From Parcubacteria group bacterium GW2011_GWC2_42_12 (GTDB lineage: Bacteria; Patescibacteriota; Patescibacteriia; Patescibacteriales; GWC2-42-12), in assembly GCA_000997945.1 (NCBI GenBank), contig LCCP01000003.1, positions 1 to 61,760 on the forward strand: 61,760 nt of DNA. Direction: 5' to 3'. The notes beneath the pieces are model-generated. The model was not told the DNA's origin and did not search any database. It worked only from the letters and a program-made list of their open reading frames with translations. Position 1 is the first letter of the stretch. Each line of letters begins with the position of its first letter. This document shows, piece by piece, positions 4,410 to 59,264 of this stretch. The position numbers were made by a program, and so were the translations under genes.

Positions 4410-4525
4410 AAAAATTTAAAAATCAAAGTTAAAAATGACAATTCAAAATGTAAAATACCTAAGGTTAAATAATTTTAGATTTTCCATTGTTATTTTACAT
4501 TTTGAGATTTTCATTTTAAATTTTC
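4410..4525. repeat. AT-rich inverted-repeat element (copy E2) ending at the ATG
   Basis: The arms tcaaaatgtaaaata and tattttacattttga are complementary. The right end is shared with copy E1. Confidence 0.65.
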
Positions 4526-6256: not shown

Positions 6257-7045
6257 ATGTCTATCATCTTCTCCGCGATTGTTCCTCATCCGCCCATACT
6301 TATCCCGGCCATAGGCAAAGAAAATTTAGAACAGCTAAAAGCCACGGCCGATTCTTATTCAGAATTAGAGCAAGATTTGTATGCAACGCAAGCGGAAACT
6401 ATTATTATTATTTCGCCTCACGGTCCTTTGCAGGAAAGCGCCTTCAGTCTAAATTTAAGCCAGGAATTTTATGGTGATTTTAAGGATTTTGGCGATCTGA
6501 CGACCAAATTCAATTTAAGGGGAGATATCGGCCTAGCCCATAAGATTAAAGAAAAAATGGAAGCCGTAGCGCCATTGCAGCTCGTCAGCGAAGCTCGGCT
6601 TGACCATGGCACCTCAATCCCGCTTTACTTATTAACCCAACATCTGCCTAAAATAAAAATCATCCCGCTTTATTATTCGGGACTAGACTTGACCGCTCAT
6701 TACAATATCGGGCAAATGATCAAGAATGAATTGTTAAGTTCAAGAGGTAGAGTCGCGGTTATAGCTTCCGGCGATTTATCGCATCGCTTAACAAAAAACG
6801 CGCCGGCCGGCTACAACCCGAAAGGAAAAAAATTCGATAAAAAATTAATTGACAATTTACTTAAAAAACAGATTAATGAAATAATTAAATTTAATCATGA
6901 TTTCGTAGCCGATGCCGGAGAATGCGGCTTAAAATCCATTGTTATTCTCTTGGGCATCCTTGATGGCATAAAATATGAGCCACGGCTCTTATCATACGAA
7001 GCGCCGTTTGGCGTTGGTTATTTAGTGATGAATTTTAAATTATAA
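6257..7045 (+). CDS. LigB/Memo-superfamily protein (class III extradiol dioxygenase subunit B-like)
   Basis: Carries the IVPHPPILIP, DHGTSIPL and GDLSHRL motifs. It is a possible partner of the AmmeMemoRadiSam enzyme. Confidence 0.65.
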   Translation: MSIIFSAIVPHPPILIPAIGKENLEQLKATADSYSELEQDLYATQAETIIIISPHGPLQESAFSLNLSQEFYGDFKDFGDLTTKFNLRGDIGLAHKIKEKMEAVAPLQLVSEARLDHGTSIPLYLLTQHLPKIKIIPLYYSGLDLTAHYNIGQMIKNELLSSRGRVAVIASGDLSHRLTKNAPAGYNPKGKKFDKKLIDNLLKKQINEIIKFNHDFVADAGECGLKSIVILLGILDGIKYEPRLLSYEAPFGVGYLVMNFKL

Positions 7046-7315
7046 CTTATCGCCCCGGCCGCCGCTGATCTTAAAAAAATATTTCCACTTCTGTCCCCCT
7101 TGGCACAATTCTTTAGTATCATTTAAACATTTTTCAATAAAAATTCTTGGTTTTTGCTTGCAAACTTTAAAAACCGCGCTTCTTTTAAAATCCGGAACAT
7201 TCAAATCTTTAATTACTTTTAAAGCTAAGTCCTGCCAAGCATAGGCCGGCATTTTTTTATTCTGTCTGCGGGCAAATAAATCCCCGATTTTTTCCGGACC
7301 CTTATCTATAGGCAT
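7040..7315 (-). CDS. Small hypothetical protein (91 aa)
   Basis: Intact ORF whose 3' end overlaps the convergent neighbour by 6 nt. No recognisable motif. Confidence 0.45.
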   Translation of the reverse strand: MPIDKGPEKIGDLFARRQNKKMPAYAWQDLALKVIKDLNVPDFKRSAVFKVCKQKPRIFIEKCLNDTKELCQGGQKWKYFFKISGGRGDKL

Positions 7316-7338: not shown

Positions 7339-7494
7339 GATTGGACTAAGTTTAGTTTAATTTTCGTGCGAGGACTGTTTGAGCCAGTAAAACCTTTAAT
7401 ATTTTACTTAATTTAATCGTGAAATCAGCCATCTTCAACAAAACATAAGTGGGCGAGTTCCGCAGTAGAAAATTAAACTAAACTTAGTCCAATC
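7339..7494 (+). repeat. Hairpin element family A, copy A1
   Basis: Has perfect 27-bp arms gattggactaagtttagtttaattttc / gaaaattaaactaaacttagtccaatc. The core is GAGGACTGTTTGAGCC ... GGCGAGTTCCGCAG with a 66-nt insert. Confidence 0.85.
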
Positions 7495-7593: not shown

Positions 7594-8067
7594 ATGCCAA
7601 TACTTAAAATAATTACCATACCTAATCCCATCTTAAGGAAAAAGTCCAAAGAAATAAACTTTAAGGAAATTAACACTCGCGACTTTGCCAAATTGGTTTC
7701 AGCTATGGGAAAAACCATGATCAAGACCGACGGCGCTGGCCTGGCGGCTCCGCAAATAGGCAAAAGTATCCGCCTGGCCGTAATTAACTCCAAGGACGGG
7801 CCGATTTGCCTAATTAATCCAAAAATTACCAGGAAATCTTGGGCCAGAGAATTAGGCCAAGAGGGCTGCTTATCCATACCGGGGATTTTTGGCCAAGTAA
7901 AAAGGCACAAAAAAATCACGGTGGCTTATTATAATCAAGCGGGGAAAAAAATAAAGCAAGTGGCCCAAGGGTTAATGGCGCGAGTCATGCAACATGAAAT
8001 CGACCACTTGGATGGAATTTTGTTTATTGATAAGATGGCGGGGAAAAAAATAAAGCAACATGAATAA
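7594..8067 (+). CDS. def: Peptide deformylase
   Basis: Carries the GAGLAAPQIG, EGCLSIPG and HEIDHLDG motifs. Confidence 0.95.
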   Translation: MPILKIITIPNPILRKKSKEINFKEINTRDFAKLVSAMGKTMIKTDGAGLAAPQIGKSIRLAVINSKDGPICLINPKITRKSWARELGQEGCLSIPGIFGQVKRHKKITVAYYNQAGKKIKQVAQGLMARVMQHEIDHLDGILFIDKMAGKKIKQHE

Positions 8068-9011: not shown

Positions 9012-9174
9012 GCCGAACAATAGTTTTAATTTTTCACTCAAGACGAAATTTGTGTATTTTTTCTTAAAATTATTCAATAGGTAAAGACCAAAATAGCCAA
9101 GAGTGAAATTGAATAATTTTAAGAAAAAATTACTACAATTTCGTATTCGTTCAAAACTAAAACTATTGTTCGGC
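9012..9174 (+). repeat. Hairpin element family B, copy B1
   Basis: Arms are gccgaacaatagttttaatttt / aaaactaaaactattgttcggc. The core aagacgaaattt...ctacaatttcgtat is shared with the copy at 11204. Confidence 0.8.
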
Positions 9175-9714: not shown

Positions 9715-10217
9715 CGCGGCTGTGTAGGCAAGCGAACAAAAAAAATTGCGCGCAACACCAAAACATCAAAAATTGGAGAACGCATGAGCAAAGAAAAGTT
9801 AGTATTGTCTAAACTCGCCCGTCAGCACCCAGAATGTGCCACTCGGGCCAAAAACCGGGCCAACAAATTCTTATTGGAGAACGAGCAAGAGATTCGCTAT
9901 CTAGGCGGACGCAACGACTTGGGCGCTACCATCAGCGAGGCGGTGGCATTCGGATTTCCACCTAACCAGAGCAGTGAACTGGCAATAAGCGAGGGGGTGA
10001 AGCCAGAAATAACCGCCGGCACCACTTACTTCTTCTTCCTCTTTCGATTTGTGGGAAAAAGGGGACGAATCCAAGCGGAACTGTTGAAGTTGATGCAATC
10101 CAGGGGCCGAAAGATGGTCTTCCGACCATCCGGCCACGCGGCCATTTTCTAGGAGGTTCTACAAAGGGGGTGAAAACGCGAACCGCACAACTTGCATTTT
10201 CATCCCCTCTTTTTTTA
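9715..10217 (+). other. GC-rich orphan transcription unit R1 (122-codon ORF 9784-10152 or a structured RNA)
   Basis: Shows an abrupt GC rise and long ORFs on both strands. GGAGA lies 4 nt before ATG 9784. A strong terminator follows the stop codon. Confidence 0.4.
10165..10217 (+). terminator. Intrinsic terminator of unit R1
   Basis: A 12-bp stem agggggtgaaaa/ttttcatcccct followed by cttttttt. Confidence 0.7.
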
Positions 10218-11147: not shown

Positions 11148-11203
11148 AGATTTGTTAATAAATTTATTAGTTTATTATATTTAATTTTAAATAATCACGG
11201 GCA

Positions 11204-11310
11204 GCGTCGGACAAAAATATTGTTTTTTCGCTTAAGACGAAATTTGGATATTTTCTCTTAAAATTACTACAATTTCGTATGCGCTCAAAACCAATATTTT
11301 TGTCCGACGC
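11204..11310 (+). repeat. Hairpin element family B, copy B2
   Basis: Arms are gcgtcggacaaaaatattg / caatatttttgtccgacgc. The core matches B1 but lacks the B1 internal insert. Confidence 0.8.
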
Positions 11311-11334
11311 TTTATCCAATTATTATCAAAATAT

Positions 11335-12657: not shown

Positions 12658-14718
12658 CTATCTCTCCTTAGGTATCTGCCAATAATTTAGCATATATTCG
12701 GCTAATTGGCCAAACAGCGGCGCGGCCGAGCTTTCCGCCCACTCCACATTGCGCGGACGGTCAATTCTAACCAACATAACAAATTTTGGGTCATCTATCG
12801 GAGCAAAACCGCCGAATGAACCAATATTGATATTGTCCTCATACCCGCCCTTTTTCGCCACCTGCGCCGTCCCGGTTTTGCCGCCCACATAATAGCCCTT
12901 GACCGCGGCTTTTTTACCATGGCCGTTCTCAACAACATTGACCATCATGCCGCCTAATATAGTAGCGGCTTTTTCTGAAATAACTCTTCTAATCACTTTA
13001 GGGCTAGTTTCTATTTTAGCGCCATCCGGCTTGATTATTTCCTTAACCAGGTACGGTTTCATCAAAATCCCATTATTGGCGATAGCTGAAAAAACTGAAA
13101 CCATCTGTATCGGGGTCACGCTTAAGCCCTGGCCAAACGAAGCCGTGGCGGCGTAAAGCTCATGCACCGGCTTAGTCATTAAATTTTTGATGTCCCCCTT
13201 GCTCTCACCCGTTAATTCCAGACCAGTCTTTTCGCCAAAACCAAACTCTTTGACATAGTCGGCGAACAAATCCGGACCAATTTTCCTCATGACAAAAATC
13301 GCGCCGGTATTTAAGGACTTTTCCAGCACTTGAGTCATGGTTTGCGCGCCGTTGGCTTTATGGTCGGAATTTTCCATGGTGCGATCGGCGATTTTTACCT
13401 GGCCGGTATCATCATAAGTAGTTTGCGGCGTAATTTTCTCCTGATCTAAAGCCATGGCCATAGTCAGAACTTTAAAAATTGAACCCGGCTCATACTGAGA
13501 AAACACTGCCGGATTAGTGAAAACTTTAATATCTTTAACTTTTTGATATTCATTACCGTCATAATCCGGGTTAGAACACATAGCTAAGATAGCGCCGGTT
13601 TTCGGCTCCATGATAATGACGCTGCCGCCGTCGGCTCCATATTTGGCCACGGCTTCGTTTAATTTCTTGCAAGCCGTAAATTGGATAGAGCGATTGATGG
13701 TTAGAATTAAATCAGCGCCATTCTCCGGTTTTAAATACTCACGATCATTGATAATAATGGCTTGTCCTTTAGCATCGCGTTCGATTTTGATTGAACCAGG
13801 CCGGCCGTAGAGCTCTTGATCAAAATATTCTTCCAAGCCGTATCGGCCCTTTTCTTGATCGCCAACAAAGCCGACAAAACCCAATAGATTAGCGCCGATA
13901 TTCCCTTCCGGATAAAAACGATAGGATTTTTCAGAAAAACCCAGTCCCGCGATAGCTAATTTTCTTTTCGGGCCGTGATTTATAATAAACAAAGCATTAT
14001 TGGCAATCTCTAGGTCGTCTAATTTTATGTCTTCGTCTGCCGGGCTTATCGCCAAATAAAACTTTTTTAAAATCACTTCATCCACTTTTTGCTCTAATGG
14101 TTCATAAACATCCCCCGGCTTATCTATTTTTTTTAAATAGCCGTCAACGATACTAGTTTTTCGCAAATTAATCTCCGCTTCTCGCCTAATTTTTTTTATC
14201 TCTAAAAACTTCGCGTCGGCTAAAAGCCGCCGGTGATTGGCTACAATTTCCGCTTGTTTAACTTGATTTAGCTCATCATTTAAATCCCCGAGAGCGTCAA
14301 TTTGAGCTTTCAACCGATCCGCCTCTTCTTTCTTTAATAATTCATCAACTTCTTTCTCCGTCTGCTCTTGTTTAAAAGTAATGTATAGTTGCTCGGCTGT
14401 AAGCCGCGCTTCTTTCGCCTTAAAGTCCTTAGGCACGGCAAAAAGAATATAAAAATTCTTGTTAGTGGCGATGGGATAAAGCTGGTTGCCGGCTTTGTCA
14501 TTTTGGGTAAAAATTCTACCGCGCTCCGGCGCCAATAAATTATAAATCTGGTGCTGGTCTGAAGCCAAACTATAATATAACTCATAGTTTAAAACCTGCA
14601 GATCAAATAATTTAAAAATAATCAGGCCGGATAATAAAAAAATAATCGCGATTATCAAATTAATGCGACTATTATTTATCTTATTAAAATTCTTTTGACC
14701 CTTTTTCCAAAAAGACAT
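12658..14718 (-). CDS. ftsI: Penicillin-binding protein (FtsI-type transpeptidase)
   Basis: Has an N-terminal TM helix and the SIFK (SxxK), SLN (SxN) and KTGTA motifs. A coiled-coil insert sits in the pedestal region. Confidence 0.85.
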   Translation of the reverse strand: MSFWKKGQKNFNKINNSRINLIIAIIFLLSGLIIFKLFDLQVLNYELYYSLASDQHQIYNLLAPERGRIFTQNDKAGNQLYPIATNKNFYILFAVPKDFKAKEARLTAEQLYITFKQEQTEKEVDELLKKEEADRLKAQIDALGDLNDELNQVKQAEIVANHRRLLADAKFLEIKKIRREAEINLRKTSIVDGYLKKIDKPGDVYEPLEQKVDEVILKKFYLAISPADEDIKLDDLEIANNALFIINHGPKRKLAIAGLGFSEKSYRFYPEGNIGANLLGFVGFVGDQEKGRYGLEEYFDQELYGRPGSIKIERDAKGQAIIINDREYLKPENGADLILTINRSIQFTACKKLNEAVAKYGADGGSVIIMEPKTGAILAMCSNPDYDGNEYQKVKDIKVFTNPAVFSQYEPGSIFKVLTMAMALDQEKITPQTTYDDTGQVKIADRTMENSDHKANGAQTMTQVLEKSLNTGAIFVMRKIGPDLFADYVKEFGFGEKTGLELTGESKGDIKNLMTKPVHELYAATASFGQGLSVTPIQMVSVFSAIANNGILMKPYLVKEIIKPDGAKIETSPKVIRRVISEKAATILGGMMVNVVENGHGKKAAVKGYYVGGKTGTAQVAKKGGYEDNINIGSFGGFAPIDDPKFVMLVRIDRPRNVEWAESSAAPLFGQLAEYMLNYWQIPKER

Positions 14719-14733
14719 AGTAAATATTTAGCT

Positions 14734-15087
14734 CTATTTCTTCGCCACTATCCCACTGCCGGCGCTAATATAATCTATCTCGCCGACGGCAACCATCTTT
14801 AAACTATCCACCTTGCTGCTAATAATATTATAAGAGCTCAAGGCCATGGCTTTAAGTTCTAACTTTTTATTTTCAGCGGCCAATCTATTCCGCTGTTCTT
14901 TCAAATCGCTCAAGGCAAAGCCCTGAATGGCCAAATCATTGGTTCCGGCGAGATAAAGTATGCCTAAAACAATCATGCCGGCAAACAAAATCTTATTAAA
15001 AATTTTCAAATTTAAAACATGGTTTTTAAAAAATAAAGAAAAATTACTTAGAGCCGGCCCTTTTTCATTATTCTTCATGGTTTTCAT
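14734..15087 (-). CDS. FtsL-like cell division membrane protein
   Basis: A single TM helix followed by a coiled coil, positioned between rsmH and ftsI. Confidence 0.45.
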   Translation of the reverse strand: MKTMKNNEKGPALSNFSLFFKNHVLNLKIFNKILFAGMIVLGILYLAGTNDLAIQGFALSDLKEQRNRLAAENKKLELKAMALSSYNIISSKVDSLKMVAVGEIDYISAGSGIVAKK

Positions 15088-15138: not shown

Positions 15139-15245
15139 AGCAGTTGGCTGGAATTAGTAATTTTTAAAGCGAGGACTAACCGTTCGGCCGACCTTTTCTC
15201 CGTTTACATCCGTAGCGAGAAAATTACTAATTCCAGCCAACTGCT
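15139..15245 (+). repeat. Hairpin element family A, copy A2 (degenerate core)
   Basis: Has 26-bp arms agcagttggctggaattagtaatttt / aaaattactaattccagccaactgct. It retains GCGAGGACT and GCGAG but has lost GTTCCGCA. Confidence 0.8.
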
Positions 15246-15263: not shown

Positions 15264-16214
15264 CTATATCTTCTCCACTACTCGTAATTTAGCGCTCCTG
15301 GATCTTGGATTTTTTAAGACCTCCTCCGCAGTCGGCCTTAAAACCTTGCGAGTCAATATTTTAAGCTCCGCCTTGTGGCCGCACTGGCAAATTGGCATAA
15401 TCGGCGGACAAAGGCAATCCCTGGCTGCTTGTCTGAAATATTGCTTAACAATCCTATCTTCCAAACTATGATAGGAAATAACCGCCAATTTTCCGCCCGG
15501 TTTCAATAAACTTACTGCTTGAGGCAAAGCGCCGCGCAGATTGTCTAATTCTTGATTTACGGCTAAACGCAAACTCTGAAAAATCTTGGTGGCCGGATGC
15601 GTCTTTTTGTCTTGAAACCGCTTTGGTATGGCGCCAGCAATAATCTTAACTAATTGATCCGTGGTAATAATTCGCTTAATTCGGCGCTCGGCGGCTATGG
15701 CTAAGGCAATTTTATAGGCGAATTTCTCTTCGCCGTAATCTCTAAATATTTTAGCTAACTCTTTAATATCCCAGCTATTAATAATATTCTCGGCCGTCTC
15801 GGTAATCCCGCCGCCAAAATTCATATTTAACTGCGCGCCAGTTAAATTAAATGAAAATCCCCTAGCCCGATCTTCTAGTTGAGCTGATGATAGCCCGAGA
15901 TCAAGGACGATACCGTCAAATCTGGCATCCGCCGTAAAATATTTCTTAACAATGACTGATAAATTTTTAAAATTGGCATGGGCTAAATATAATTGATGAT
16001 TAGCAATCGATAACTTTAAAGTTAAGGCCGCGTTGGCGATGGCTAGATTATCAAGATCAATGGCTAAAACTTTTCCTTCATTGCCAAGCCGGCCCAAAAT
16101 CGCTTTACTGTAACCGCCGCCGCCCAAAGTACAATCTATATAATTATTTCCCGGCTCGGGATTTAAATATTCCATTACCTCCTTCAACATAACTGGCAGA
16201 TGTTTATATTCCAT
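15264..16214 (-). CDS. rsmH: 16S rRNA (cytosine1402-N4)-methyltransferase
   Basis: Carries HLPVML, DCTLGGGGYS, DLGLSS and SYHSLEDR motifs. Confidence 0.95.
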   Translation of the reverse strand: MEYKHLPVMLKEVMEYLNPEPGNNYIDCTLGGGGYSKAILGRLGNEGKVLAIDLDNLAIANAALTLKLSIANHQLYLAHANFKNLSVIVKKYFTADARFDGIVLDLGLSSAQLEDRARGFSFNLTGAQLNMNFGGGITETAENIINSWDIKELAKIFRDYGEEKFAYKIALAIAAERRIKRIITTDQLVKIIAGAIPKRFQDKKTHPATKIFQSLRLAVNQELDNLRGALPQAVSLLKPGGKLAVISYHSLEDRIVKQYFRQAARDCLCPPIMPICQCGHKAELKILTRKVLRPTAEEVLKNPRSRSAKLRVVEKI

Positions 16215-30805: not shown

Positions 30806-31351
30806 ATGGCAAAACAAATATTAAATCAAGGCCGGCGCTGGTATGTGCTCCACACTTATTCCGGCTATGAAGAGAATGTCTCGCAAAATTTAAAGCAAAG
30901 AATTGAGTCCATGGACATGGAGGACAAAATTTTTAATATCTTAATCCCTACGGAAAAGAAAATTAAAATTAAAAACGGCAAACGGAAAATTGTTGAAGAA
31001 AAAATCTTTCCCGGCTATGTCTTAGTAGAGATGATTGTCAACGATGACTCCTGGTATGTAGTTAGAAATACGCCGAATGTCACCGGCTTTATCGGCACCG
31101 GCACTATCCCCACGCCGATCACCGAAGCGGAAATCAAAGATTTACAAAAACGCATGGGCGTTTTAGAGCCAAAATTTAAAATTGACGTTTCGGTCGGTTC
31201 GCCGGTACGGATTATTGACGGACCATTTAAAAATTTGGATGGCAAAGTCGTGGGTATTGACGAGGCCAGAGGAAAAATTAAAGTTTCAGTCTCTATGTTC
31301 GGCCGCGAAACGCCGATTGAACTAGACTTTTTACAGATTAAAAAAATATAG
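30806..31351 (+). CDS. nusG: Transcription termination/antitermination factor NusG
   Basis: RWYVLHTYSGYE NGN domain plus a KOW motif (GPFKNLDGKV). Confidence 0.95.
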   Translation: MAKQILNQGRRWYVLHTYSGYEENVSQNLKQRIESMDMEDKIFNILIPTEKKIKIKNGKRKIVEEKIFPGYVLVEMIVNDDSWYVVRNTPNVTGFIGTGTIPTPITEAEIKDLQKRMGVLEPKFKIDVSVGSPVRIIDGPFKNLDGKVVGIDEARGKIKVSVSMFGRETPIELDFLQIKKI

Positions 31352-31473
31352 CCCACAAATCAACAAATCAGCTACAAATAATACAAATAAATGCTTCTTA
31401 ATATTCGTAATATTCGTAGCAAATTCGTAGATTTGTGGGTGCGGAAAACTATAAAATAACAAATCAAATCAGT

Positions 31474-31896
31474 ATGGCTAAAAAAATATTAACTAAAATC
31501 AAACTGCAGATCCCGGCCGGCCAAGCTAACCCCGCGCCGCCAATCGGTCCGGCCTTAGGCCAGCACGGCTTGAATATTTCGCAATTCTGCAAAGACTTTA
31601 ACGAAAAAACCAAGAATAAAATGGGCGACATTACGCCGGTAGAAATAACGGTTTTTGAAGACCGTTCCTATACCTTCATCTTAAAAACCCCTCCGGCCGC
31701 GGAATTAATTAAAAAATTCGCGAAAATTCCCAAAGGTTCGGGCAAACCCTTAACCGAGAAGGTCGGCTCTATCACTCGCGCCCAACTTAAAGAAATCGCC
31801 GAGATTAAAATGCCCGACCTTAACGCCCATGATATAGAAGCGGCTATGAAAATCATCGCCGGCACGGCCAGGCAGATGGGGGTGGAAATAAAATAA
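31474..31896 (+). CDS. rplK: 50S ribosomal protein L11
   Basis: [32 protein letters not shown]. The start is set at ATG 31474. Confidence 0.95.
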
Positions 31897-31910
31897 TAAG
31901 AAATTACAGT

Positions 31911-32012
31911 GGTTCGGGCTAAATTTATTAAATTTACTCCTGCGGAACTCGCCAGCTTGAAGGCTGGCTCAAACAGTCCTCGTTCGTAAATTTAATAAAT
32001 TTAGCCCGAACC
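31911..32012 (-). repeat. Hairpin element family A, copy A3
   Basis: Has perfect 27-bp arms ggttcgggctaaatttattaaatttac / gtaaatttaataaatttagcccgaacc. The minus-strand core is GAGGACTGTTTGAGCCagccttcaagctGGCGAGTTCCGCAG. Confidence 0.88.
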
Positions 32013-32094
32013 TTTCAATCGTAACCAATATAATTTATATCAATTATTAATTTGTGGGAGTCGGCCTTGGGCTGACGCTCGCACCACGAAAATT

Positions 32095-32784
32095 ATGACA
32101 GATAAAAAACCAAAAAAAACCGCCGACAAAAAAGCGACCGAATACGACAAAACCAAACCCTATCCGATCGCCGAGGCGATTGAGTTAACTAAAAAGCTGG
32201 CTAAGACCAAGTTTGACGCTTCAATAGAAGTTCATTTTAAGCTGGGCATTGATATTAAAAAAGGCGAACAACAAGTCAGAGTAGCCGTTCCCCTGCCTCA
32301 TGGCACGGGCAAGACCATAAAAATCGCGGCTTTTGTTACTCCGGCCAAAGAAAAAGAAGCGCGCGAGGCCGGGGCCGATTTAATTGGCGGCGAAGACTTG
32401 ATCGCCGAGATCAAAAAAACCGAAAAAACCGATTTTCAGGTAGCAGTAGCCGAACCGATTATGATGAAAAATTTAGGGCAAATCGCTAAAATTTTAGGCA
32501 CGCGCGGTTTAATGCCCTCGCCCAAAAACGATACGGTTACGCCTGATCCGGCCAAAGCCGTCCGAGAACTAAAGAAGGGCAAGGTAAGCTTAAAAAACGA
32601 CGATACCGGCAATGTCCATGTCGCCATCGGCAAGGTTTCTTTTGAGTCCCAGAAATTAGTCCAAAATTTTGATGTTTTATTAGAAGCCATTAGAAAAGCC
32701 AAACCGCCAACTTCCAAAGGCGTTTACTTAAAGAATGTCACGATCTGCTCAACCATGGGGCCGGGTATAAGAGTAGCGATCTAA
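32095..32784 (+). CDS. rplA: 50S ribosomal protein L1
   Basis: Typical L1 sequence (FDASIEVHFKLGID, LPHGTGK, GPGIRV). Confidence 0.95.
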   Translation: MTDKKPKKTADKKATEYDKTKPYPIAEAIELTKKLAKTKFDASIEVHFKLGIDIKKGEQQVRVAVPLPHGTGKTIKIAAFVTPAKEKEAREAGADLIGGEDLIAEIKKTEKTDFQVAVAEPIMMKNLGQIAKILGTRGLMPSPKNDTVTPDPAKAVRELKKGKVSLKNDDTGNVHVAIGKVSFESQKLVQNFDVLLEAIRKAKPPTSKGVYLKNVTICSTMGPGIRVAI

Positions 32785-32806
32785 AACTCATAGCTCAATA
32801 AAAAAC

Positions 32807-32836
32807 ACCAGATTCACAAATCTGGTATTTTTTATT
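32807..32836 (+). terminator. Intrinsic terminator after rplA
   Basis: An 8-bp stem accagatt/aatctggt followed by atttttttatt. Confidence 0.7.
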
Positions 32837-32850
32837 ATTTAAAATTACTA

Positions 32851-33208
32851 TTGACTACTCTAAATCAAAAAGATAATATAATATTATCCGACGAAAAAAG
32901 TCGAAAAAACCAAAAAAACAGGAAAAAACCATGAGCAAAAGTTGTAACTTCAAACCCTTGCCACTGCATAGCGACCCACCTTGGTGGCAACGCAGGAAAC
33001 CCCGGACAAACATATTCGGGTCGTCCGAAAGAACCATCCTTCATTTTGCTCCCAGAAGGTTGGGGAGACCGCAACGAAGCGCAAAGACGCTTTCCCCCGC
33101 CGCCGCGCCTCAATAAAGCGCGCGAAACAATCAAGCTAACGGCCAAGGCAGCAACGCCTGCCTAGCCCCACCCCGCGTTCCAAACCCAAGGCGCGCGGGG
33201 ATTTTTTT
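32851..33208 (+). other. GC-rich orphan transcription unit R2 (promoter, ~320 nt, terminator)
   Basis: Promoter TTGACT-N17-TAATAT. The body is GC-rich with ORFs on both strands, including a Pro/Arg-rich 61-codon ORF. The terminator is ccccgcg/cgcgggg followed by a ttttttt run. Confidence 0.4.
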
Positions 33209-33282
33209 ACATAATACTTTTTTCACAAAAAAACTTAAAACAAAAAACCGTGAACCCAGAGCCCACGGTTTTTTGTTTAGGT

Positions 33283-33747
33283 CTATCTCACCGGCGGAGT
33301 CGAGGTCGCGTTTATCAATATATTCGGGCGCAATTGAATAGACTGCGCGGTAACACTGCCATCAGAGTTGGCGCTACCCGTTATCATGACATTCTTACCT
33401 AATTCCAAATCAGTTATAGAACCGTCAACCGATTTGGTAATTTGGGTACCGGCGGCCAAAAAAATAATTTTTGACCCGCCGTCAACCGACTTAACCGTTA
33501 TGCTCTTATCGTCTTGAGCGATAATCTCACCGTTAATAAAACTGCCGGCCGCCCGATTGCCGCCATTTCTAAGCTGGCCAGTACTGTCTCTCAATATTCC
33601 GCCGCCGGCAACACCAAATCCCTGGCGCTGACCGAAGACCAAATTCCGCGCTCCGCTCTTGCTCTTGGCATAGCTCATGCCGCCGTAAAAAAATCCGGCG
33701 CCGACCACCACCACGATAATCGCAAAAATTATTATTGTGTTTTTCAT
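33283..33747 (-). CDS. Membrane-anchored beta-rich protein (DUF5666-like)
   Basis: Has an N-terminal TM helix and a C-terminal VMITGSANSDGSVTAQSIQLRP motif. Confidence 0.55.
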   Translation of the reverse strand: MKNTIIIFAIIVVVVGAGFFYGGMSYAKSKSGARNLVFGQRQGFGVAGGGILRDSTGQLRNGGNRAAGSFINGEIIAQDDKSITVKSVDGGSKIIFLAAGTQITKSVDGSITDLELGKNVMITGSANSDGSVTAQSIQLRPNILINATSTPPVR

Positions 33748-33780
33748 AAAATTTTAAAAACTATTAATTTTATTATTTAA

Positions 33781-35007
33781 TTATTCAAATCTTAAGGCCT
33801 CAATCGGATTCAGTTTCGACGCCCGCCGCGCCGGATAATAACCAAAAATTAAACCAATGGCCGCGGACACGCCGCAGGCTAACAGTATGGCAGATACGGA
33901 GACGCTGGTAGCCAGGCCGGAAAATCTAGTTATAATCAAAGACACCGTCCAGCCTAAGAGAATACCAAAAATACCGCCCAGAAGAGTAAGTATCACCGCT
34001 TCGGTTAAAAATTGACCGCTGATATCCGATCCAGTGGCGCCGATGGCTTTGCGCAAGCCGATTTCCCGCGTCCGTTCGGTCACGGTCGTGAGCATCATGT
34101 TCATGATGCCAATGCCGCCGACAATCAGCGATATGCCGGCGATAGAGGCTAACAATATGGTAAAAGTGTTGGTAACGCTGGAGGCCGTAGCCACGATATC
34201 CGATTGATTTAAAATGCTAAAATCAGCTTGAGCGGGGTCGAAAATTTTATGCCGCGCCATCAGCAGGCCGCTAATCTGCTCCTGAACGGCCGTCATAACC
34301 TCGGCGCTCTCGGCCTCAATGCTAACGGCGGAAAGATATTCGGCGCCAACTAAAAATTTTTGCATGATAGTTAAAGGAATATAAATTATGTCATCCTGGT
34401 TGGAAAAACCGCTGCCGCCCTTGGACTCGGTGATGCCGATAACTTTAAATTCAATTTTATTGATTCTGATGGACTGGCCGATAATGCTGGCTGCTTCCGC
34501 GCCGAACAGATCGTCGCGCGTGGTCGGCCCCAGGACGGCAACCTTTGATAAATTAGAATTATGCCGCTCGGCGATAAATGAACCTTCGGCGATAGAGACA
34601 TTTCTCACTCCCGCATAGGCGTCGGTCACGCCGTTAACCGAAGTGTTGGTATTAGCGCCCTTAGCCGTTACCTGATATCTTGATGATAAATTAGAAGCCA
34701 CGGCCCTAACCGAGGTAATTTCATTTTGAATGGCATCGGCGTCGGCTTGGGTCAGGGACTGGGAACTTCCGCGCGCGAAACTAGCGCCGCCGCCGAACCC
34801 GCGCTGCATGCCGGGCATAACCATAATCAGGTTGGAACCGATGGACTGGATGCTGGACTCAATTGACCCTTGAGCGCCCTGACCAATGGAAACCATGGCG
34901 ATAACCGAAGCGATGCCGATAACTATGCCTAAAATAGTTAAGCTAGACCTAACTTTATTGCCGGACAAGGCCAAAAAACTTTCTTGAAATAAATCCGCTA
35001 TTAACAT
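33781..35007 (-). CDS. ABC transporter permease, MacB/FtsX family
   Basis: Has the TM1, large periplasmic domain, TM2-4 layout. The ERTREIGLRKAIGA motif is present. Confidence 0.9.
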   Translation of the reverse strand: MLIADLFQESFLALSGNKVRSSLTILGIVIGIASVIAMVSIGQGAQGSIESSIQSIGSNLIMVMPGMQRGFGGGASFARGSSQSLTQADADAIQNEITSVRAVASNLSSRYQVTAKGANTNTSVNGVTDAYAGVRNVSIAEGSFIAERHNSNLSKVAVLGPTTRDDLFGAEAASIIGQSIRINKIEFKVIGITESKGGSGFSNQDDIIYIPLTIMQKFLVGAEYLSAVSIEAESAEVMTAVQEQISGLLMARHKIFDPAQADFSILNQSDIVATASSVTNTFTILLASIAGISLIVGGIGIMNMMLTTVTERTREIGLRKAIGATGSDISGQFLTEAVILTLLGGIFGILLGWTVSLIITRFSGLATSVSVSAILLACGVSAAIGLIFGYYPARRASKLNPIEALRFE

Positions 35008-35024
35008 AGGTTTATTTTATGCCG

Positions 35025-35717
35025 CTAATTCTCGTATGATCGTTTTTTTTTATCGCTAACTATCTTCCCATCCTTAATCATGATAATTCTATCCGCGTGC
35101 TCGGCGACATATTGTTCATGAGTTATTAAAATAATCGTCCGGCCATGAACATTTAAATCCCGAAAGGTCGCTAAGACAATATCTCCGGTTTTAGAATCCA
35201 GGTTGCCGGTTGGTTCATCGGCCAAAATAATGGAAGGATTATTAACTAAGGCCCGGGCGATGGCCACTCTTTGCATTTGTCCGCCCGACAGCTGATTGGA
35301 TAAATGATAATAATGCGCCTCATCAAGACCGGCCTGTTTTAGGGCTTGTTTAGCTTTCTCTTCCCTGTTTTCTTTCGCCGTTTTTGAATAGACTAGTGGT
35401 AGAACCACATTTCTGATGACTGTAGCGCGCGATAAAAGATTAAACGATTGAAAAACAAAGCCGATTTTTTCCCGCCTGGTTTTTGCCAGTTCATCAGCCG
35501 CCAGACTGGAAACATTCTGGCCGTCGAGAAAGTATTGGCCGCTGGTCGGCGAATCCAGCGCTCCTAAAATATGCATCAGCGTGGATTTGCCGGAACCAGA
35601 CGGCCCGACGATAGCGACGAACTCGCCATTATTAATAATAAAAGAAATATCTTTTAATACTTCCGTAGCCACGCCGCCGGTATCGTATGATTTATAAATA
35701 TGTCCGCATTCAATCAT
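35025..35717 (-). CDS. ABC transporter ATP-binding protein (MacB/LolD type)
   Basis: Walker [10 protein letters not shown], signature LSGGQMQR, Walker [12 protein letters not shown]. The start is set at MIECGH. Confidence 0.92.
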
Positions 35718-35733
35718 GAAGTTAAAATATAAT

Positions 35734-37611
35734 TTATCGCCCGCCTGCGCCGGGAATTCTGATGGCATTAAAACCGCCAATATTACCAGTTCTCTGGGTG
35801 GCGGTCGTATTACTGGAACTTACAGTTTGGGTTACAATTATTTCGCCTTCGCTTAAACCGCTGGTAATTTCCATACTTGTGTCATTGGCCAAACCGATTT
35901 GCACGGTCCGCGCTTGCGGTTGGCCGGCGGCATCTAGCGTCTGAACATAATAACCGCCGTTAGCATCCGTTTTCACGGCTGAATTGGCGATTGATAAAAC
36001 ATCGGTTTTGGAATCGGTGATAATCGTGGCGTTAACGCTCATACCCGACTTAACCCGGCTGTCCTGAGTATCAAAAACAATTTTAAAATTATAGGTCACT
36101 ACGCCCTGGCTTACCGTGCCGATAGTATCTAAATCGGCGACTCGGCCGGTTATTTCCAGCCCGTCAATGGCGTCAAAAGTCATGATGGCTTTTTGGCCCA
36201 GCTTAATTTTAGCCGCGTCAACTTCATTTAAAGAAAGTTCGGCGATTTGCTGCTTGGTGACAATAGTGGCGATCGCCGAGCCGCCGACCGCGTCGCCAAT
36301 TTTAACATTTACCGCCGCAATCACCCCGTCGAAGGGCGCTTTAATGGTGTAATCGGCCAAAGCGGATTGCGCATCATAAAGCGCGTTGCGCTTTTGCTGT
36401 AGCGATAATTCTTGAGATCTAATATCCAAGGGGTCAGCGCCGGCCTTTAGCTTAATTAACGAAACCTGTTTCTCTTTAACCGAAGCCTCGGCCGCCGCTA
36501 AGTCAAACGGATTATTTTGTTCTATCTCTTTCAGACTACTCTTAGCGCTTATTAAGGCGTTATTATCATTTTGAATCGCGCTCTGGGTTGATAATAGATT
36601 AGATAAATGGCCGTTGGTCTGGCCGATATAAGTCGCTAAGTTAGTTTGATATTCTTTAACTTTGGAAAAAATTGTCAGGTCAAATTTGGACATCAAATCG
36701 ACCCAGACATCAAGATAATTGCTCTCGCTCTTAGCGCTTTGGGCGATTAATTTTGTAGTTTCTAAAGTTTCTGCCAGCAAAGATTCTATAATTAGCCGAT
36801 CAGAATAGCGACTAGCATTTCTATAATTCAAAAAACTAACGGCATATTTTTCTTGAGCGATTTTATAATCACTCTCCGCATTTAATTGAGAAGATTTTAA
36901 ATAGATTTTCTCTTCGCTAAACGTTTCAATTATACTATTCTCTAAAAGACTGATATTACCATAACTCTGGCCGATAGTTGGATCGCTCTCACTTATATCA
37001 TCGCTATATAAAATATTATTCATTCCAGTCATTATAGTCGGTAGATCCAAATAAACATTAGAAATGGTATTTAAAGCGTCTTCATAAGTTTTATTTAGAT
37101 TGTCTTCGGCCTTCTTCTGATTATCAATCGCTGTTTGATAATCGACCAGTTGCGATAATTTTAATTTTTCCAAACTTGTCTTGGCGTTCGTTAAAGCGTT
37201 TTCCGCCTGCATCAGCGAATAGCTGTCAACAGGTTGTTTCAATTTATCCAATGACAGCTGGGCGGTTTCCATGCTGGTCTGCGCGTCTCTAACCGTTTTA
37301 TAGACATCAGTAGCGTCAATTTGCGCTATTAAATCTCCGGCCTTTACTTCTTGACCGCTGGCGACCGCAATTTTCGTAATATCGCCGGAAACTTTTGGCG
37401 TAATATCAACTTGGTTGGAGGCGGCAATCTGACCGCTTGAAGAAACCGAAACGATTAATGTTCCTTTTTCTACCGCCGCGGCGACATAGCTTGTTTTGAT
37501 ATTACTGCCTTTAAATTTACCATAGCCGTAATAGCCGCCGAAAATTATTACCGCCAGCAAAATAATAGAGATAATTTTATGCTTTTTAAACTTGGCAATC
37601 AGTTTACTCAT
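35734..37611 (-). CDS. HlyD/MacA-family periplasmic adaptor with extended coiled coil
   Basis: Has an N-terminal TM helix, a lipoyl-like VKAGDLIAQID motif, a very long alpha-hairpin and a beta-barrel C-terminus. Confidence 0.8.
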   Translation of the reverse strand: MSKLIAKFKKHKIISIILLAVIIFGGYYGYGKFKGSNIKTSYVAAAVEKGTLIVSVSSSGQIAASNQVDITPKVSGDITKIAVASGQEVKAGDLIAQIDATDVYKTVRDAQTSMETAQLSLDKLKQPVDSYSLMQAENALTNAKTSLEKLKLSQLVDYQTAIDNQKKAEDNLNKTYEDALNTISNVYLDLPTIMTGMNNILYSDDISESDPTIGQSYGNISLLENSIIETFSEEKIYLKSSQLNAESDYKIAQEKYAVSFLNYRNASRYSDRLIIESLLAETLETTKLIAQSAKSESNYLDVWVDLMSKFDLTIFSKVKEYQTNLATYIGQTNGHLSNLLSTQSAIQNDNNALISAKSSLKEIEQNNPFDLAAAEASVKEKQVSLIKLKAGADPLDIRSQELSLQQKRNALYDAQSALADYTIKAPFDGVIAAVNVKIGDAVGGSAIATIVTKQQIAELSLNEVDAAKIKLGQKAIMTFDAIDGLEITGRVADLDTIGTVSQGVVTYNFKIVFDTQDSRVKSGMSVNATIITDSKTDVLSIANSAVKTDANGGYYVQTLDAAGQPQARTVQIGLANDTSMEITSGLSEGEIIVTQTVSSSNTTATQRTGNIGGFNAIRIPGAGGR

Positions 37612-37616
37612 ATTTT

Positions 37617-38123
37617 TTATTTTAAGTCGGCGTTAGTGTCGGTGGCGTTTTCATTATTAGCGTTATTAAACATTGGCGCCGGCATAACCCGAATAAGTCT
37701 TGCTTCCACTTGCCCCTGATTATTCGGTCGGCCGATTACCACAATATAATCGTCAACTCTTAAATCAGCTATTTTCAAACTTTGGTTAAATTTTTGAATG
37801 GCGGTCTGATCATTAATGACAATTGTTTTTTCAACATTATCCGGCCCTTTAACGACGAGACTATTGCCTTCAATTTTAATGATTTGGCCAAAGCCGCTAT
37901 GAGCGTTAAATTCCGGCCGGCCAAAATCCATCATACCGCGCCCGCGCCCGCCCGGTCCGATAATATTACGGTAATAATTCTCCCCCCAATTTCTGGAAAA
38001 CCTGCCTTTTTCGTGGCCGACTAAGACGCCGGCAGAAAACACAAAGACCAAGACGACCATGGTTGCTAAAATGATTAATAGCTTATTGAGGTGCGTCGGT
38101 TTAAACATTTCTTTTAAACTCAT
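37617..38123 (-). CDS. Membrane-anchored beta-rich protein (DUF5666-like)
   Basis: Has a TM helix and the VVIGRPNNQGQVEARLIRV motif, similar in type to the protein at 33283. Confidence 0.55.
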   Translation of the reverse strand: MSLKEMFKPTHLNKLLIILATMVVLVFVFSAGVLVGHEKGRFSRNWGENYYRNIIGPGGRGRGMMDFGRPEFNAHSGFGQIIKIEGNSLVVKGPDNVEKTIVINDQTAIQKFNQSLKIADLRVDDYIVVIGRPNNQGQVEARLIRVMPAPMFNNANNENATDTNADLK

Positions 38124-38145
38124 AAATTTAAATATTACTTAATTA

Positions 38146-38236
38146 AGCAGTCGGCTGGATTAATAATTTTTTGAAGTGAGGATTGTCTGAGCGAAGCGAG
38201 TTCCGCAACGAAAAAAATTATTAATCCAGCCGACTG
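38146..38236 (+). repeat. Hairpin element family A, copy A4 (minimal form)
   Basis: Has 26-bp arms gcagtcggctggattaataatttttt / aaaaaattattaatccagccgactgc. The core is GAGGATTGTCTGAGC-gaa-GCGAGTTCCGCAA. Confidence 0.88.
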
Positions 38237-38238
38237 CG

Positions 38239-38646
38239 TCAAATTTCTATCTTTTTGTAATCGCTATAAGCATCCTCCAGCTTGGCAATATAGAAAATAA
38301 CTGCCAACATGGCGGACAACGCCAGCGGCAAACTAACAATTGGGGCTGATTCTAAAAGAGTTAAAGTGTAATCGCCAACATTGGCCATGACTATATTTAA
38401 ATCAGTAGATAACAATGATAAAAATTGCATCAAACCTGATTGAACAATATCGGCATATAGTTTAAAAGTAAGGGGGATGAAAACAAAAGAAGATAATAAT
38501 AAACCAGCCGACCGTAAGATTAGCCGTCTTTTTAATATCATTAATTTCTGCTCACGACTTATTCGATTGATTATCCGATCATACAGATCGGCGCTGGGTT
38601 CTATTAGCATATTGTTAATACGATAAGGTGAACCGTTTTGGTTCAC
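38239..38646 (-). CDS. Putative anti-sigma factor (membrane protein)
   Basis: Overlaps the upstream ECF sigma gene by 4 nt. It has TM helices after a short cytoplasmic N-terminus. Confidence 0.45.
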   Translation of the reverse strand: MNQNGSPYRINNMLIEPSADLYDRIINRISREQKLMILKRRLILRSAGLLLSSFVFIPLTFKLYADIVQSGLMQFLSLLSTDLNIVMANVGDYTLTLLESAPIVSLPLALSAMLAVIFYIAKLEDAYSDYKKIEI

Positions 38647-39203
38647 TTTTTAATTAGCTTCTTCAATTTTTGCAGCGCCCGCCGATTTCGACTCTTTATG
38701 GTTTCAATTGATTCCTGCAAAATTTCGGCAATCTCCCTAAATTTATAGCCGCTCTGATAATATAATTTAACAGTCTCTCGATATTTTTTAGGTAATTTAT
38801 CAACCGCGGCATTCACCCTATCGGTGTTCTGCGCTGTTTCCAGTTCGGCTTGAGGCGACAGACCGGCTTCTTTAATAAAATTTTCAAATAACAAATTATC
38901 GTCGGTCAGATTAAGCTCGGAAAAACTTATGGCCTTATTCTTTTTCAAATAATCCAGACTGGTATTTTTAGCGATGGTATAGAGCCAATTTTTAAATCTA
39001 TACCGGCTGTCAAACTTCTTTATCTTCCGCCAAACCTTAACGAAAACTTCCTGGGTCAGATCATCGGCCACGGCCGTATCTTTAACCAAGCTTAAGGCAT
39101 AATTAAAAATCGGCGTTAAATAGCGCTTAATTAAAATATTAAGTGCTTCTCTATCGCCTTTTAAATACGCCTCTACTAGTTGTTCGTCAATTAGCTTCTC
39201 CAT
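38643..39203 (-). CDS. ECF-type RNA polymerase sigma-70 factor
   Basis: Region 2 (DLTQEVFVKVW, FKNWLYTIA) and region 4 (YQSGYKFREIAEIL) are recognisable. Confidence 0.9.
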   Translation of the reverse strand: MEKLIDEQLVEAYLKGDREALNILIKRYLTPIFNYALSLVKDTAVADDLTQEVFVKVWRKIKKFDSRYRFKNWLYTIAKNTSLDYLKKNKAISFSELNLTDDNLLFENFIKEAGLSPQAELETAQNTDRVNAAVDKLPKKYRETVKLYYQSGYKFREIAEILQESIETIKSRNRRALQKLKKLIKK

Positions 39204-55600: not shown

Positions 55601-55712
55601 TTCAATTTTTAATTTCTAATTTTTAATTTTGATTGAATTTTTAATGATAAATTTCTAATTTTAAAATTCAAAATTAATCATTCATTCAAAATTCTAAATT
55701 CAAAACTCAAAA
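55601..55712 (-). repeat. AT-rich element family F, copy F2
   Basis: Its reverse complement aligns with 30320-30412. Confidence 0.7.
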
Positions 55713-56288
55713 TTACTTTACTTTATATACTACCACCTTGGCCGCGGCTATGACTTTGCCGTTCAGCTTATAGCCGGCTTTTACCAGTTTAGCCACCTTG
55801 CCGTCTAAACTTTTATCCTCTATTTCTTCATTGCTGATCGCTTCCATAATGTTATGGTCGTATTCTTTATCTTTCACTTTTATTTCTTCTACGCCGATTT
55901 TTTCTAAAACATCCTTAAATTGTTTAACCACATGCTTCACGCCGGTTATCCATTCATCCGTTGATTCGCCCGAGTGATGTTCTACGGCCATTTTTAAATG
56001 GTCATAAACCGGCAAAATTTCTTTGAGCATCAGTTCGTTGGCGAACAAGGCAAATTCCATTTTTTCCTTGGCTGTTTGCTTCAATAAATTTTGATAATCG
56101 GCTAGGGCGCGCTTATATTTTTCTTCTAAGGTCTTCTCATCTGATTTATTATCTGCCGCGGTGCCAGCACCGCTAGACTTGTCTGACAAGGCCTTGGCTT
56201 CGTCAGGAACATTGACGGCATTATTTTCAGAATTGCCGCTTTGCTCGTTTAGATCTTTCTTTTCTTCTGCCATATTATTTTTTTTCAA
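55713..56288 (-). CDS. grpE: Nucleotide exchange factor GrpE
   Basis: Has KYKRALADYQN, a coiled coil and a beta-domain C-terminus. It lies between hrcA and the hsp20/dnaK genes. Confidence 0.92.
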   Translation of the reverse strand: MKKNNMAEEKKDLNEQSGNSENNAVNVPDEAKALSDKSSGAGTAADNKSDEKTLEEKYKRALADYQNLLKQTAKEKMEFALFANELMLKEILPVYDHLKMAVEHHSGESTDEWITGVKHVVKQFKDVLEKIGVEEIKVKDKEYDHNIMEAISNEEIEDKSLDGKVAKLVKAGYKLNGKVIAAAKVVVYKVK

Positions 56289-59089: not shown

Positions 59090-59142
59090 AAGGATACAAA
59101 TCAACAAATCTTACTACAAATATACAAATAAATATTCGTCAA

Positions 59143-59264
59143 GGCAGTCGGCTGGAATTAGTAATTTTTGAAGTGAGGACTGTTTGACCCCGCATTTGCG
59201 GGGGAGTTCCCTGCCTGCCGGCAGGCAGGCGCAACGAAAAAATTACTAATTCCAGCCGACTGCC
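59143..59264 (+). repeat. Hairpin element family A, copy A5
   Basis: Has 27-bp arms ggcagtcggctggaattagtaattttt / aaaaattactaattccagccgactgcc. The core is GAGGACTGTTTGAC-ccccgcatttgcgggg-GAGTTCC-[cctgcctgccggcaggcagg]-CGCAA. Confidence 0.88.

Follow-up and report, generated by a model that had tools for sequence, protein, structure and literature searches.

REP and REPIN sequences are short, gene-less, hairpin-forming repeats that occur in high copy just downstream of genes, leave no target duplication and are thought to act as folded single-stranded DNA that is recognized in trans. They carry a GTAG-type foot on a short, conserved, lineage-specific palindrome, and they flank a RAYT gene. IS200/IS605 elements and their MITE derivatives, the PATEs, are also recognized as hairpins in single strands and insert with a strand bias and without target duplication; their target is a fixed tetranucleotide, and their left and right subterminal hairpins differ. 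Correia (NEMIS) and ERIC elements are intergenic, transcribed hairpin repeats within operons, with conserved terminal inverted repeats, narrow hosts and, in the case of Correia, a TA duplication. Correia RNA hairpins are cut by RNase III. Two further systems are built on hairpins. The attC sites are read as a folded single strand by their shape and a few unpaired bases, which leaves the paired sequence free and the terminal structure variable (3 to >100 nt), and they need the base boxes RYYYAAC/GTTRRRY, cassette borders and an adjacent integrase. At parvovirus terminal hairpins, a nuclease that binds a hairpin motif makes its nick a fixed distance away, and one arm serves as the template for the other.

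We analysed a 61,760-nt stretch of DNA (the window) from a candidate-phyla-radiation (CPR) bacterium and found that five hairpins in it are copies of a gene-less small repeat that has recently spread in this organism. The closest known kinds are REP/REPIN–RAYT and IS200/IS605-derived elements. Like REPs and REPINs, the repeat is short and hairpin-forming, lies just downstream of genes in high copy and lacks a target duplication, and it may likewise be recognized in trans as a folded single strand. Unlike REPs, it has a variable foot and a tip that is conserved across phyla, and GTAG is not found in the window copies. It shares with IS200/IS605 elements and PATEs the absence of a target duplication, a strand bias and, possibly, single-strand hairpin recognition, but it is a single symmetric hairpin. 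Although it resembles Correia and ERIC elements in its intergenic position within operons, it has no sequence similarity to them. The attC sites and parvoviral hairpins are not relatives and resemble it only in their logic. None of the attC boxes, cassette borders or integrases was found at the five copies. Parvoviral hairpins, in which copying would keep the arms perfectly complementary, offer a mechanistic analogy only, as they form a viral genome end rather than a dispersed chromosomal repeat, and we saw no Rep-like gene.

A sequence-only reading of the window had reported the five hairpins. All are present, and one, copy 4, needed a shift of a single base. They are listed here with their neighbouring genes, which Pfam assigned in agreement with the contexts given by that reading (rsmH/ftsL-like, rplK/rplA, anti-sigma/DUF5666-HlyD and 176-aa ORF/PBP2):

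7339-7494, plus strand: copy 1, with arms at 7339-7365 and 7468-7494, 5′ core at 7370-7383 and 3′ core GAGTTCCGCA at 7455-7464; neighbours LigB (6257-7045, plus) and def (7594-8067, plus).
15139-15245, plus strand: copy 2, with arms at 15139-15164 and 15220-15245 and a degenerate tip; neighbours rsmH (15264-16214, minus) and an ftsL-like ORF (14734-15087, minus).
31911-32012, minus strand: copy 3, with arms at 31911-31937 and 31986-32012; neighbours rplK (31435-31896, plus) and rplA (32095-32784, plus).
31941-31981, minus strand: core of copy 3, which reads GAGGACTGTTTGAGCC-loop-GGCGAGTTCCGCA on the minus strand, the motif ('top') strand here being the minus strand of the window.
38146-38237, plus strand: copy 4, the minimal form, with arms at 38147-38172 and 38212-38237 and a GAAGT closing region; neighbours an anti-sigma-like ORF (38239-38646, minus; ECF sigma-anti-sigma) and a DUF5666 ORF (37617-38123, minus; DUF5666-HlyD).
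38178-38207, plus strand: core of copy 4, GAGGATTGTCTGA-GCGAAGC-GAGTTCCGCA.
59143-59264, plus strand: copy 5, with arms at 59143-59169 and 59238-59264 and core at 59175-59236; neighbours a 176-aa ORF (59297-59827, minus) and PBP2 (57134-59107, minus).

An inverted-repeat search showed that the arms are 26-27 bp long and 100% complementary in all five copies, as had been claimed, and that they are the sole inverted repeats of 26-27 nt with full complementarity in the whole window. The arms begin with GATTGG, AGCAGT, GGTTCG, GCAGTC and GGCAGT. The five copies had folding z-scores between -6.8 and -11.1, and all of the 200 shuffles folded less well. Copies 2, 4 and 5 belong to one arm family, within which the mutual differences are paired changes; the arms of copy 2, for example, carry a compensatory T-A for the C-G of copies 4 and 5. 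Arms near-identical to those of copy 1 were found at two other loci (L139 and L204).

The 5′ core GAGGAYTGTYTGAS occurs exactly four times in the window, solely in copies 1, 3, 4 and 5; with two mismatches allowed, 0.9 chance matches would be expected in the window. The 3′ core GAGTTCCGCA is intact in copies 1, 3 and 4. In copy 5 it is split inside GAGTTCC^CGCA by a 19-nt palindrome, CTGCCTGCCGGCAGGCAGG (59211-59229), and this insert variant recurs at locus L187. Copy 1 carries an insert of ~66 nt in its inner hairpin. Copy 2 retains GCGAGGA (15169-15175) and TCCGTAGCGAG (15209-15219), with 33 unrelated nt in place of the loop motif and inner hairpin. The shared core proposed earlier is exact on its 5′ side in four copies, but the tip of copy 2 has been replaced and the invariant part is smaller than had been stated.

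We then searched with a covariance model, R1, built from copies on other contigs plus window copy 4. The model recovered all five copies on the correct strand, with scores of 105.1 bits for copy 4, 71.7 bits for copy 3 and 68.7 bits for copy 2 and, in a multi-locus search, 70.7 bits for copy 5 and 64.1 bits for copy 1. Run on the window alone with filters off, R1 gave partial matches to copies 5 and 1 (55.6 and 23.4 bits) and revealed no sixth true copy. In 816 kb of CPR loci, 98 matches were found at E ≤ 1e-10. No isolated arm sequences occur elsewhere in the window, and we thus found no support for insertion of the core into pre-existing palindromes.

The larger set of copies allowed the arms to be examined column by column. 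Compensatory change, which had been suspected from the window alone, was evident in 23 of the 26 arm pairs, which showed double changes among 81 distinct rows. In this alignment, which was fitted to the model so that its figures lean towards structure, 96.8% of arm cells were paired, compared with 73.4% after shuffling and 32-51% when slid; cells with changes on both sides numbered 611 versus 153 in shuffles, and the arm covariation score was 0.598 versus 0.168 in shuffled alignments, with 0/500 shuffles reaching the observed value. RNAalifold applied to 12 seed sequences found compensatory changes in 21 of the 26 arm pairs. Given the effect size and the raw listing, there is little doubt that the arms covary, despite the fitted alignment.

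The arms do not, as had been suggested, differ completely. In 90 related copies they share the consensus GCAGTTGGCTrAAwTTAGTAATTTTT, with 50-70% agreement per position. Conservation peaks at the centre and decays outward, from ~100% at the T-run and GAAGY adjoining the core to 50-70% at the ends, which agrees with the earlier description of the repeat as the reverse of a MITE with terminal inverted repeats. The outer border is nevertheless sharp: pairing stops 29-31 nt from the core in about two-thirds of 66 independent copies, and this fixed border holds also for copies with unrelated arm sequence. In CPR copies the stem ends, at the mode, 30-31 nt from the tip core and spans 26-27 bp, whatever its sequence. 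The CPR border consensus is A outside and GCAG inside. The left flank shows no fixed target of 4-5 nt such as IS200/IS605 elements use, and its only signal is the A at -1 (56%) before the G-start.

These properties bear on whether the repeat is an ordinary MITE, in which the arms would be terminal inverted repeats for a DDE transposase encoded elsewhere and the core a passenger. A recognizable arm consensus with a sharp outer boundary in CPR copies, the existence of arm subfamilies and the presence of DDE transposases in some host genomes would all be compatible with such an origin. MITEs, however, are defined by most-conserved ends that match an autonomous IS, whereas here the centre is the most conserved part and the ends the least, and it is the centre that is common to many phyla. 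No target-site duplication was found at the five copies or at 66 CPR borders, and 1.7 Mb of loci yielded no autonomous element bearing such ends. An IS4-like gene that sits between two units at locus L052 has its own unrelated inverted repeats and was set aside as an unrelated insertion. We consider a MITE origin very unlikely.

The conserved module is the hairpin tip, which consists of a helix, an asymmetric internal loop (5′-CTGTYTGA / 5′-GAGT(T)) with a tandem G·A beside the cap, and a capping hairpin. The cap, which is often a GCGNAGC-type mini-hairpin, may be of any length; we observed caps from 7 nt to ~130 nt with recurrent nested inserts, in line with the tolerance of inserts noted earlier for the central hairpin. 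A scan of 185,579 species' genomes found the exact gapped core GAGGAYTGTYTGA-N3-33-GAGTTCCGCA at at least 120 loci, against a chance expectation of ~2 by our own arithmetic (596 Gb, two strands, 31 gap lengths). Among the matches listed, the hosts include Beta-, Gamma-, Delta- and Epsilonproteobacteria, many Patescibacteria classes, Nitrospirales, Spirochaetota and Leptospirales, as well as Actinomycetota, Coriobacteriia, Firmicutes (Lachnospiraceae), Bacteroidales, Cryomorphaceae, Myxococcota, Gastranaerophilales and a Phycisphaeraceae bin. Many of the host genomes hold several copies. Complete genomes with the element include OZ242189.1, NZ_CP182357.1, OX638327.1 and Dechloromonas hankyongensis XY25, and Ralstonia GMI1000 has the variant. 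At the genome loci examined, the core always caps a longer imperfect hairpin with a lineage-specific stem, and in Proteobacteria and some others two inverted units build larger composites. An extended CPR form, TTTTTGAAGYGAGGAYTGTYTGA, is present in at least 114 metagenome contigs.

Comparison of these loci delimited the invariant part. CTGTYTGA-hairpin-GAGTT is kept while the flanking helix is wholly different at L034 (AGCCTCGT / ACGAGGCT), L071 (GGGATGTGG / TCACATCCC), L001 and L098 (AGCGAAT / ATTCGCT and similar) and the Ralstonia locus L121 (GGGGAGG / CCTCCCC). In the canonical form, G34:C56 is replaced by C:G at L056, L099 and L101, which come from different taxa, and this compensatory change fixes the register of that helix. 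The pair just outside the core also covaries (C:G in 36, U:A in 39). The loop scarcely varies across phyla, which suggests that its partner is very conserved or else that it spread horizontally, widely and in recent times.

This hairpin repeat has no match in Rfam 15 or in the searchable literature. In Rfam searches the window gave only tRNAs at the gathering score, three loci from other genomes (L001, L003 and L021) gave only rRNA at E ≤ 1, and a permissive search with copy 4 returned generic miRNA-hairpin matches far below threshold. Searches of the literature with literal 10-mers and 14-mers gave primers at most, and the papers located on CPR repeats, MITEs and mini-hairpins did not describe this element. 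Plasmid and phage BLAST with the proteobacterial unit and the minimal core returned only an unannotated Ralstonia megaplasmid variant and chance hits. We also compared the element with known structured nucleic acids. A hammerhead was rejected because just two helices are present, and a classical K-turn because it would have a 5-nt bulge and because the compensatory pair fixes another register; the hairpin ribozyme, attC boxes, Xer/dif sites, a tRNA-like T-arm and SRP RNA were dropped on reading the sequence.

To define which strand folds, we considered the caps and the mismatches. The unique short caps included 32 triloops, of which 18 were G-N-A on the top strand and 0 were T-N-C, and nine tetraloops, of which none was GNRA and none UUCG. 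The C-GNA-G sequence (GCGNAGC, as in GCGAAGC) forms a DNA mini-hairpin of extraordinary stability (PMC13037366). Arm mismatches across phyla were G·T in 26 clusters versus A·C in 6. In the CPR model alignment, which was fitted to the motif strand, G·T outnumbered A·C by 94 to 38, with 24 T·G at one column, 9 G·T at another and no A·C at either; a gapless, CPR-only count was weaker (41 versus 30). Together, these observations suggest that the pairing constraint acts on the GAGGAC ('top') strand, and by themselves they fit RNA and DNA alike.

The motif strand could be expressed as a small or antisense RNA, with the internal loop (a tandem G·A by the helix and a U-rich bulge) serving the cell as a protein-binding or tertiary RNA motif. 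An invariant asymmetric loop between arbitrary helices, with covariation on both sides, is what such a motif might look like; the wobble pairs favour the same strand, and the wide phyletic spread suggests a conserved partner. Against this, we found no promoter or terminator associated with the element, the copies are multiple and polymorphic, the loops are of the DNA type (GNA) and not the RNA type, the motif strand in CPR is antisense to essential operons, and Rfam holds nothing comparable. A small RNA therefore seems highly improbable.

We next examined the position and orientation of the copies relative to genes. In copies 2-5 the motif strand is antisense to the flanking genes; copy 1 is the only one in which it may be the mRNA strand, unless an unsupported 91-aa ORF (7040-7315, minus) is real. 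After de-duplication, CPR copies flanked by co-directional ORFs carried the top strand antisense to the genes in 28 cases and sense in 5 (p = 7e-5), and a looser count gave 42 versus 7. GC skew agrees with the coding strand (85% of genes); the single copy that is discordant with its region, window copy 3, sides with its local genes. Across phyla the corresponding orientation was 22 versus 13, with 15 convergent and 4 divergent contexts. The single orientation inferred from the window thus holds for the CPR family but is weak outside it. In CPR the median distance is 8 nt from the upstream stop codon to the element and 32 nt from the element to the next start. With respect to genes, the element is oriented contrary to the IS608 rule. 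Should most CPR genes be co-oriented with replication, the motif strand would lie on the leading-strand template, the opposite of the arrangement in IS200/IS605.

None of the copies has a U-tract, as had been observed, and a terminator scan of 31000-39000 left copies 3 and 4 unflagged while reporting terminator-like sites elsewhere (for example, 33278-33238). Lacking the U-tract that follows the GC-rich hairpin of an intrinsic terminator, the repeats are not terminators of this kind. They could instead be a structured RNA internal to operons that uncouples neighbouring cistrons or protects them, whether as a site of RNase III processing, as a stability element or by binding a protein. In the window, four of the five copies have co-directional genes of essential operons on both sides; copies of the CPR family follow closely on the stop codon, and RNase III could plausibly cleave a perfect 26-27-bp duplex. 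The 28:5 bias could equally reflect a constraint or function at the RNA level, and copy 3 agrees with its local genes. In the usual CPR orientation, however, the mRNA carries the complement of the strand with the pairing and loop signatures, so that recurrent G·T positions turn into C·A mismatches and UNC loops take the place of GNA. The bias is also weaker across phyla, where many copies lie between convergent genes, and neither GNRA or UUCG loops nor an Rfam family was found.

The best matches to the L1 protein of the window are 88-92% identical and come from Patescibacteria and Falkowbacteria-like MAGs. In three syntenic contigs from relatives with ~90% L1 identity (35 kb), the element was absent at two orthologous sites. 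The rplK-rplA spacer is 59 nt without the element in L125 and holds a different AT-rich palindrome in L122, and the anti-sigma/DUF5666 junction is ~20 nt without the element in both. No core was found in these 35 kb, in contrast to five copies in 62 kb of the window. These empty sites and the contrast in copy number indicate that the element was gained or lost within ~10% protein divergence, the flanks of the relatives being too diverged to define exact insertion borders. We saw no transposition event, donor or enzyme, and our grounds for mobility are presence or absence and copy number. Of the two roles put forward in the sequence-only reading, a DNA-hairpin mobile element fits better, because relatives lack the element at the same sites and the motif strand is usually not the mRNA. 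Together with the strand evidence, the same empty junctions and the sharp variation in copy number among close relatives make an operon-internal RNA, the main rival reading, unlikely.

We searched for a partner gene by clustering the ORFs in 1.7 Mb of loci and found no protein family enriched within 4-10 kb of copies; the clusters comprised only ABC ATPases, glycosyltransferases, UvrA, ClpB, DnaB and similar housekeeping proteins. A tblastn search with an IS608 TnpA query identified IS200-type Y1 transposase genes in four CPR contigs, which suggests that single-strand DNA enzymology is available in the group. These related contigs carry IS200-type tnpA with C-GAA-G-looped end hairpins. At L224 the Y1 gene lies 1.4 kb from a copy, with end hairpins (CCACCGAC-GAA/ATT-GTCGG) unrelated to the motif, and we found no sequence common to the element and these IS200 ends. 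A RAYT query, which makes for a weak test, had no tblastn match in 1.7 Mb of loci.

Taken together, our data favour a non-autonomous, selfish hairpin repeat that is read at its tip as a folded single strand, probably of DNA, and we put the probability of this whole explanation at about one-half. Its parts differ in strength. The element is very probably a selfish, non-autonomous repeat of ~90-160 bp that recently multiplied in a Falkowbacteria-like Patescibacteria genome, given that its copy number contrasts with that in relatives, that it forms subfamilies, that some copies have decayed and that no linked gene was found. More tentatively, we propose that the element is handled in the form of folded single-stranded DNA, with reading at the tip and measurement along the stem; we base this on the type of loop, the asymmetry of the wobble pairs, the constant length of the stem and the absence of a duplication.

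In this model of a selfish repeat, the tip would be recognized while the element is folded as a single strand, most likely of DNA, with GAGGAC as the likeliest strand. An enzyme encoded elsewhere would act in trans, cutting or copying at a measured distance down the stem, and insertion would take place without target duplication, mostly just past stop codons. As the tip would be read by its sequence and the stem by its shape only, arm sequences could drift, and their complementarity may be kept either by selection for a foldable stem or by repair or copying of one arm from the other. Operons may tolerate the element mainly when the complement of the motif lands in the mRNA. The weak G·T excess within CPR, the contrast with IS200/IS605 in the predicted strand placement and the strong orientation bias relative to genes count against this explanation. 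So do the near-identity of the motif across phyla, which is hard to square with a fast-evolving, element-specific transposase, and the perfect arms that copy 2 has despite its dead tip.

A bolder version would make the repeat a member of an undescribed, pan-bacterial class of hairpin mobile elements. Its ~13-nt tip loop (CTGTYTGA/GAGTT) would be the sole sequence-specific part, read on folded single-stranded DNA by a highly conserved and possibly host-encoded enzyme. Its site of action would be set by distance along the stem, so that any stem sequence could be carried, and each arm would be rebuilt from the other in the manner of rolling-hairpin replication. We regard this version as doubtful.

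The repeat has consequences for how these genomes are analysed. It breaks metagenome assemblies, and covariation tests would mis-score it as a structured RNA; model R1 and the loop pattern offer a ready means of taking a census of the element in other genomes. In streamlined genomes it lies inside essential operons, including rplKA, the mraZ-dcw cluster and the mrdA region. If the RNA reading is right, it would represent a widespread operon-internal processing signal that is absent from Rfam. If instead the tip is a handle for movement, one short loop would be read alike from Patescibacteria to Proteobacteria, Firmicutes and Actinomycetota, which would reveal an unrecognized and very conserved enzyme–nucleic acid interaction and a route of transposition free of target duplication.

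The capping hairpin of the element carries two nested inserts that recur across loci from other genomes or metagenomes. They were found in two groups of loci, L131, L152, L183, L207, L211, L214, L220 and L237, and L164, L182, L184 and L235. The first insert, of ~100 nt, has the borders CCCACCAyTTTTT...AAAAArTGGTGTGGG. The lower strand of this insert reads AAGGAGAAAAAATG, which looks like a ribosome-binding site followed by a start codon. The second insert spans ~75 nt between the borders GCCGCCATCTAGTT...GCTAACAGTTCTGC. Copy 5 (59143-59264) contains a shorter palindrome, the 19-nt CTGCCTGCCGGCAGGCAGG, at 59211-59229, where the insertion point is GAGTTCC^CGCA. A copy of the element in another locus, L187, holds this palindrome with one base changed at the identical insertion point, within flanks that differ from those of copy 5. 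Either a variant of the element is propagating or a mini-palindrome inserts site-specifically.

A second hairpin family shares the architecture of the element, with a conserved centre (AAGACGAAATTTG...ACTACAATTTCGTAT) and complementary arms that differ from copy to copy. The window holds two copies, and a decayed relative lies in the syntenic contig L122:

9012-9174, second hairpin family, with a 23-bp perfect palindrome nested at 9056-9130
11203-11311, second hairpin family
L122:15123-15330, decayed relative of this family

A third kind of repeat consists of long, AT-rich imperfect palindromes made of AAAATGTAAAAT-like words:

4411-4524 and 55610-55715, AT-rich palindromes in the window
L122:1463-1571, 9837-9940 and 14301-14415, AT-rich palindromes in the relative

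The rplK–rplA spacer is occupied by an AT-rich palindrome in L122, whereas in the window it contains the hairpin element. Directly upstream of rplA, at ~32050-32094, a block of the form TTAATTTGTGGGAG-N-CGCTCGCACCACGAAAA is kept in the window and in contigs L122, L125 and L126, and the remainder of the spacer is variable. This block is a candidate L1-binding autoregulatory leader; it had no Rfam match at the gathering score.

Beside copy 1 (7339-7494) lies one further reading frame:

7040-7315, minus strand, 91-aa ORF overlapping the end of LigB

This ORF had no Pfam match. Copy 1 lies between either co-directional or divergent genes, depending on whether the ORF is genuine.

In L133, L229 and L236, the right arm of one copy ends at ...TTACTAAC and unrelated sequence follows; L133 contains two half-copies, inverted relative to each other and 1.7 kb apart. 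Such copies may have arisen when the DNA rearranged at the element, or they may be chimeras created by assembly across a repeat.

An IS200-type transposase gene lies 1.4 kb from a copy of the element in locus L224:

L224:4950-5560, IS200-type Y1 transposase gene, also in L226, L148 and L169
L224:5550-5790, palindromic repeat after this gene

The end hairpins of the gene are CCACCGAC-GAA-GTCGG and ACCACCGAC-ATT-GTCGGTGGT. The palindromic repeat contains many GAGCGAAGCGGAG and GAGCGAGCGA words, which are similar to the cap region of the element.

Ralstonia carries the unannotated variant GGGGAGGCTGTCTGAGCGAAGCGAGTTTGCCTCCCC. Of 130 matching Ralstonia records, the 30 listed show it 2–5 times on each megaplasmid:

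L121, Ralstonia pseudosolanacearum GMI1000 megaplasmid, 302989-303015, GGGGAGGCTGTCTGAGCGAAGCGAGTTTGCCTCCCC with an inverted partner ~200 bp upstream

Ralstonia provides a genetically tractable, cultivable host in which the motif could be tested.
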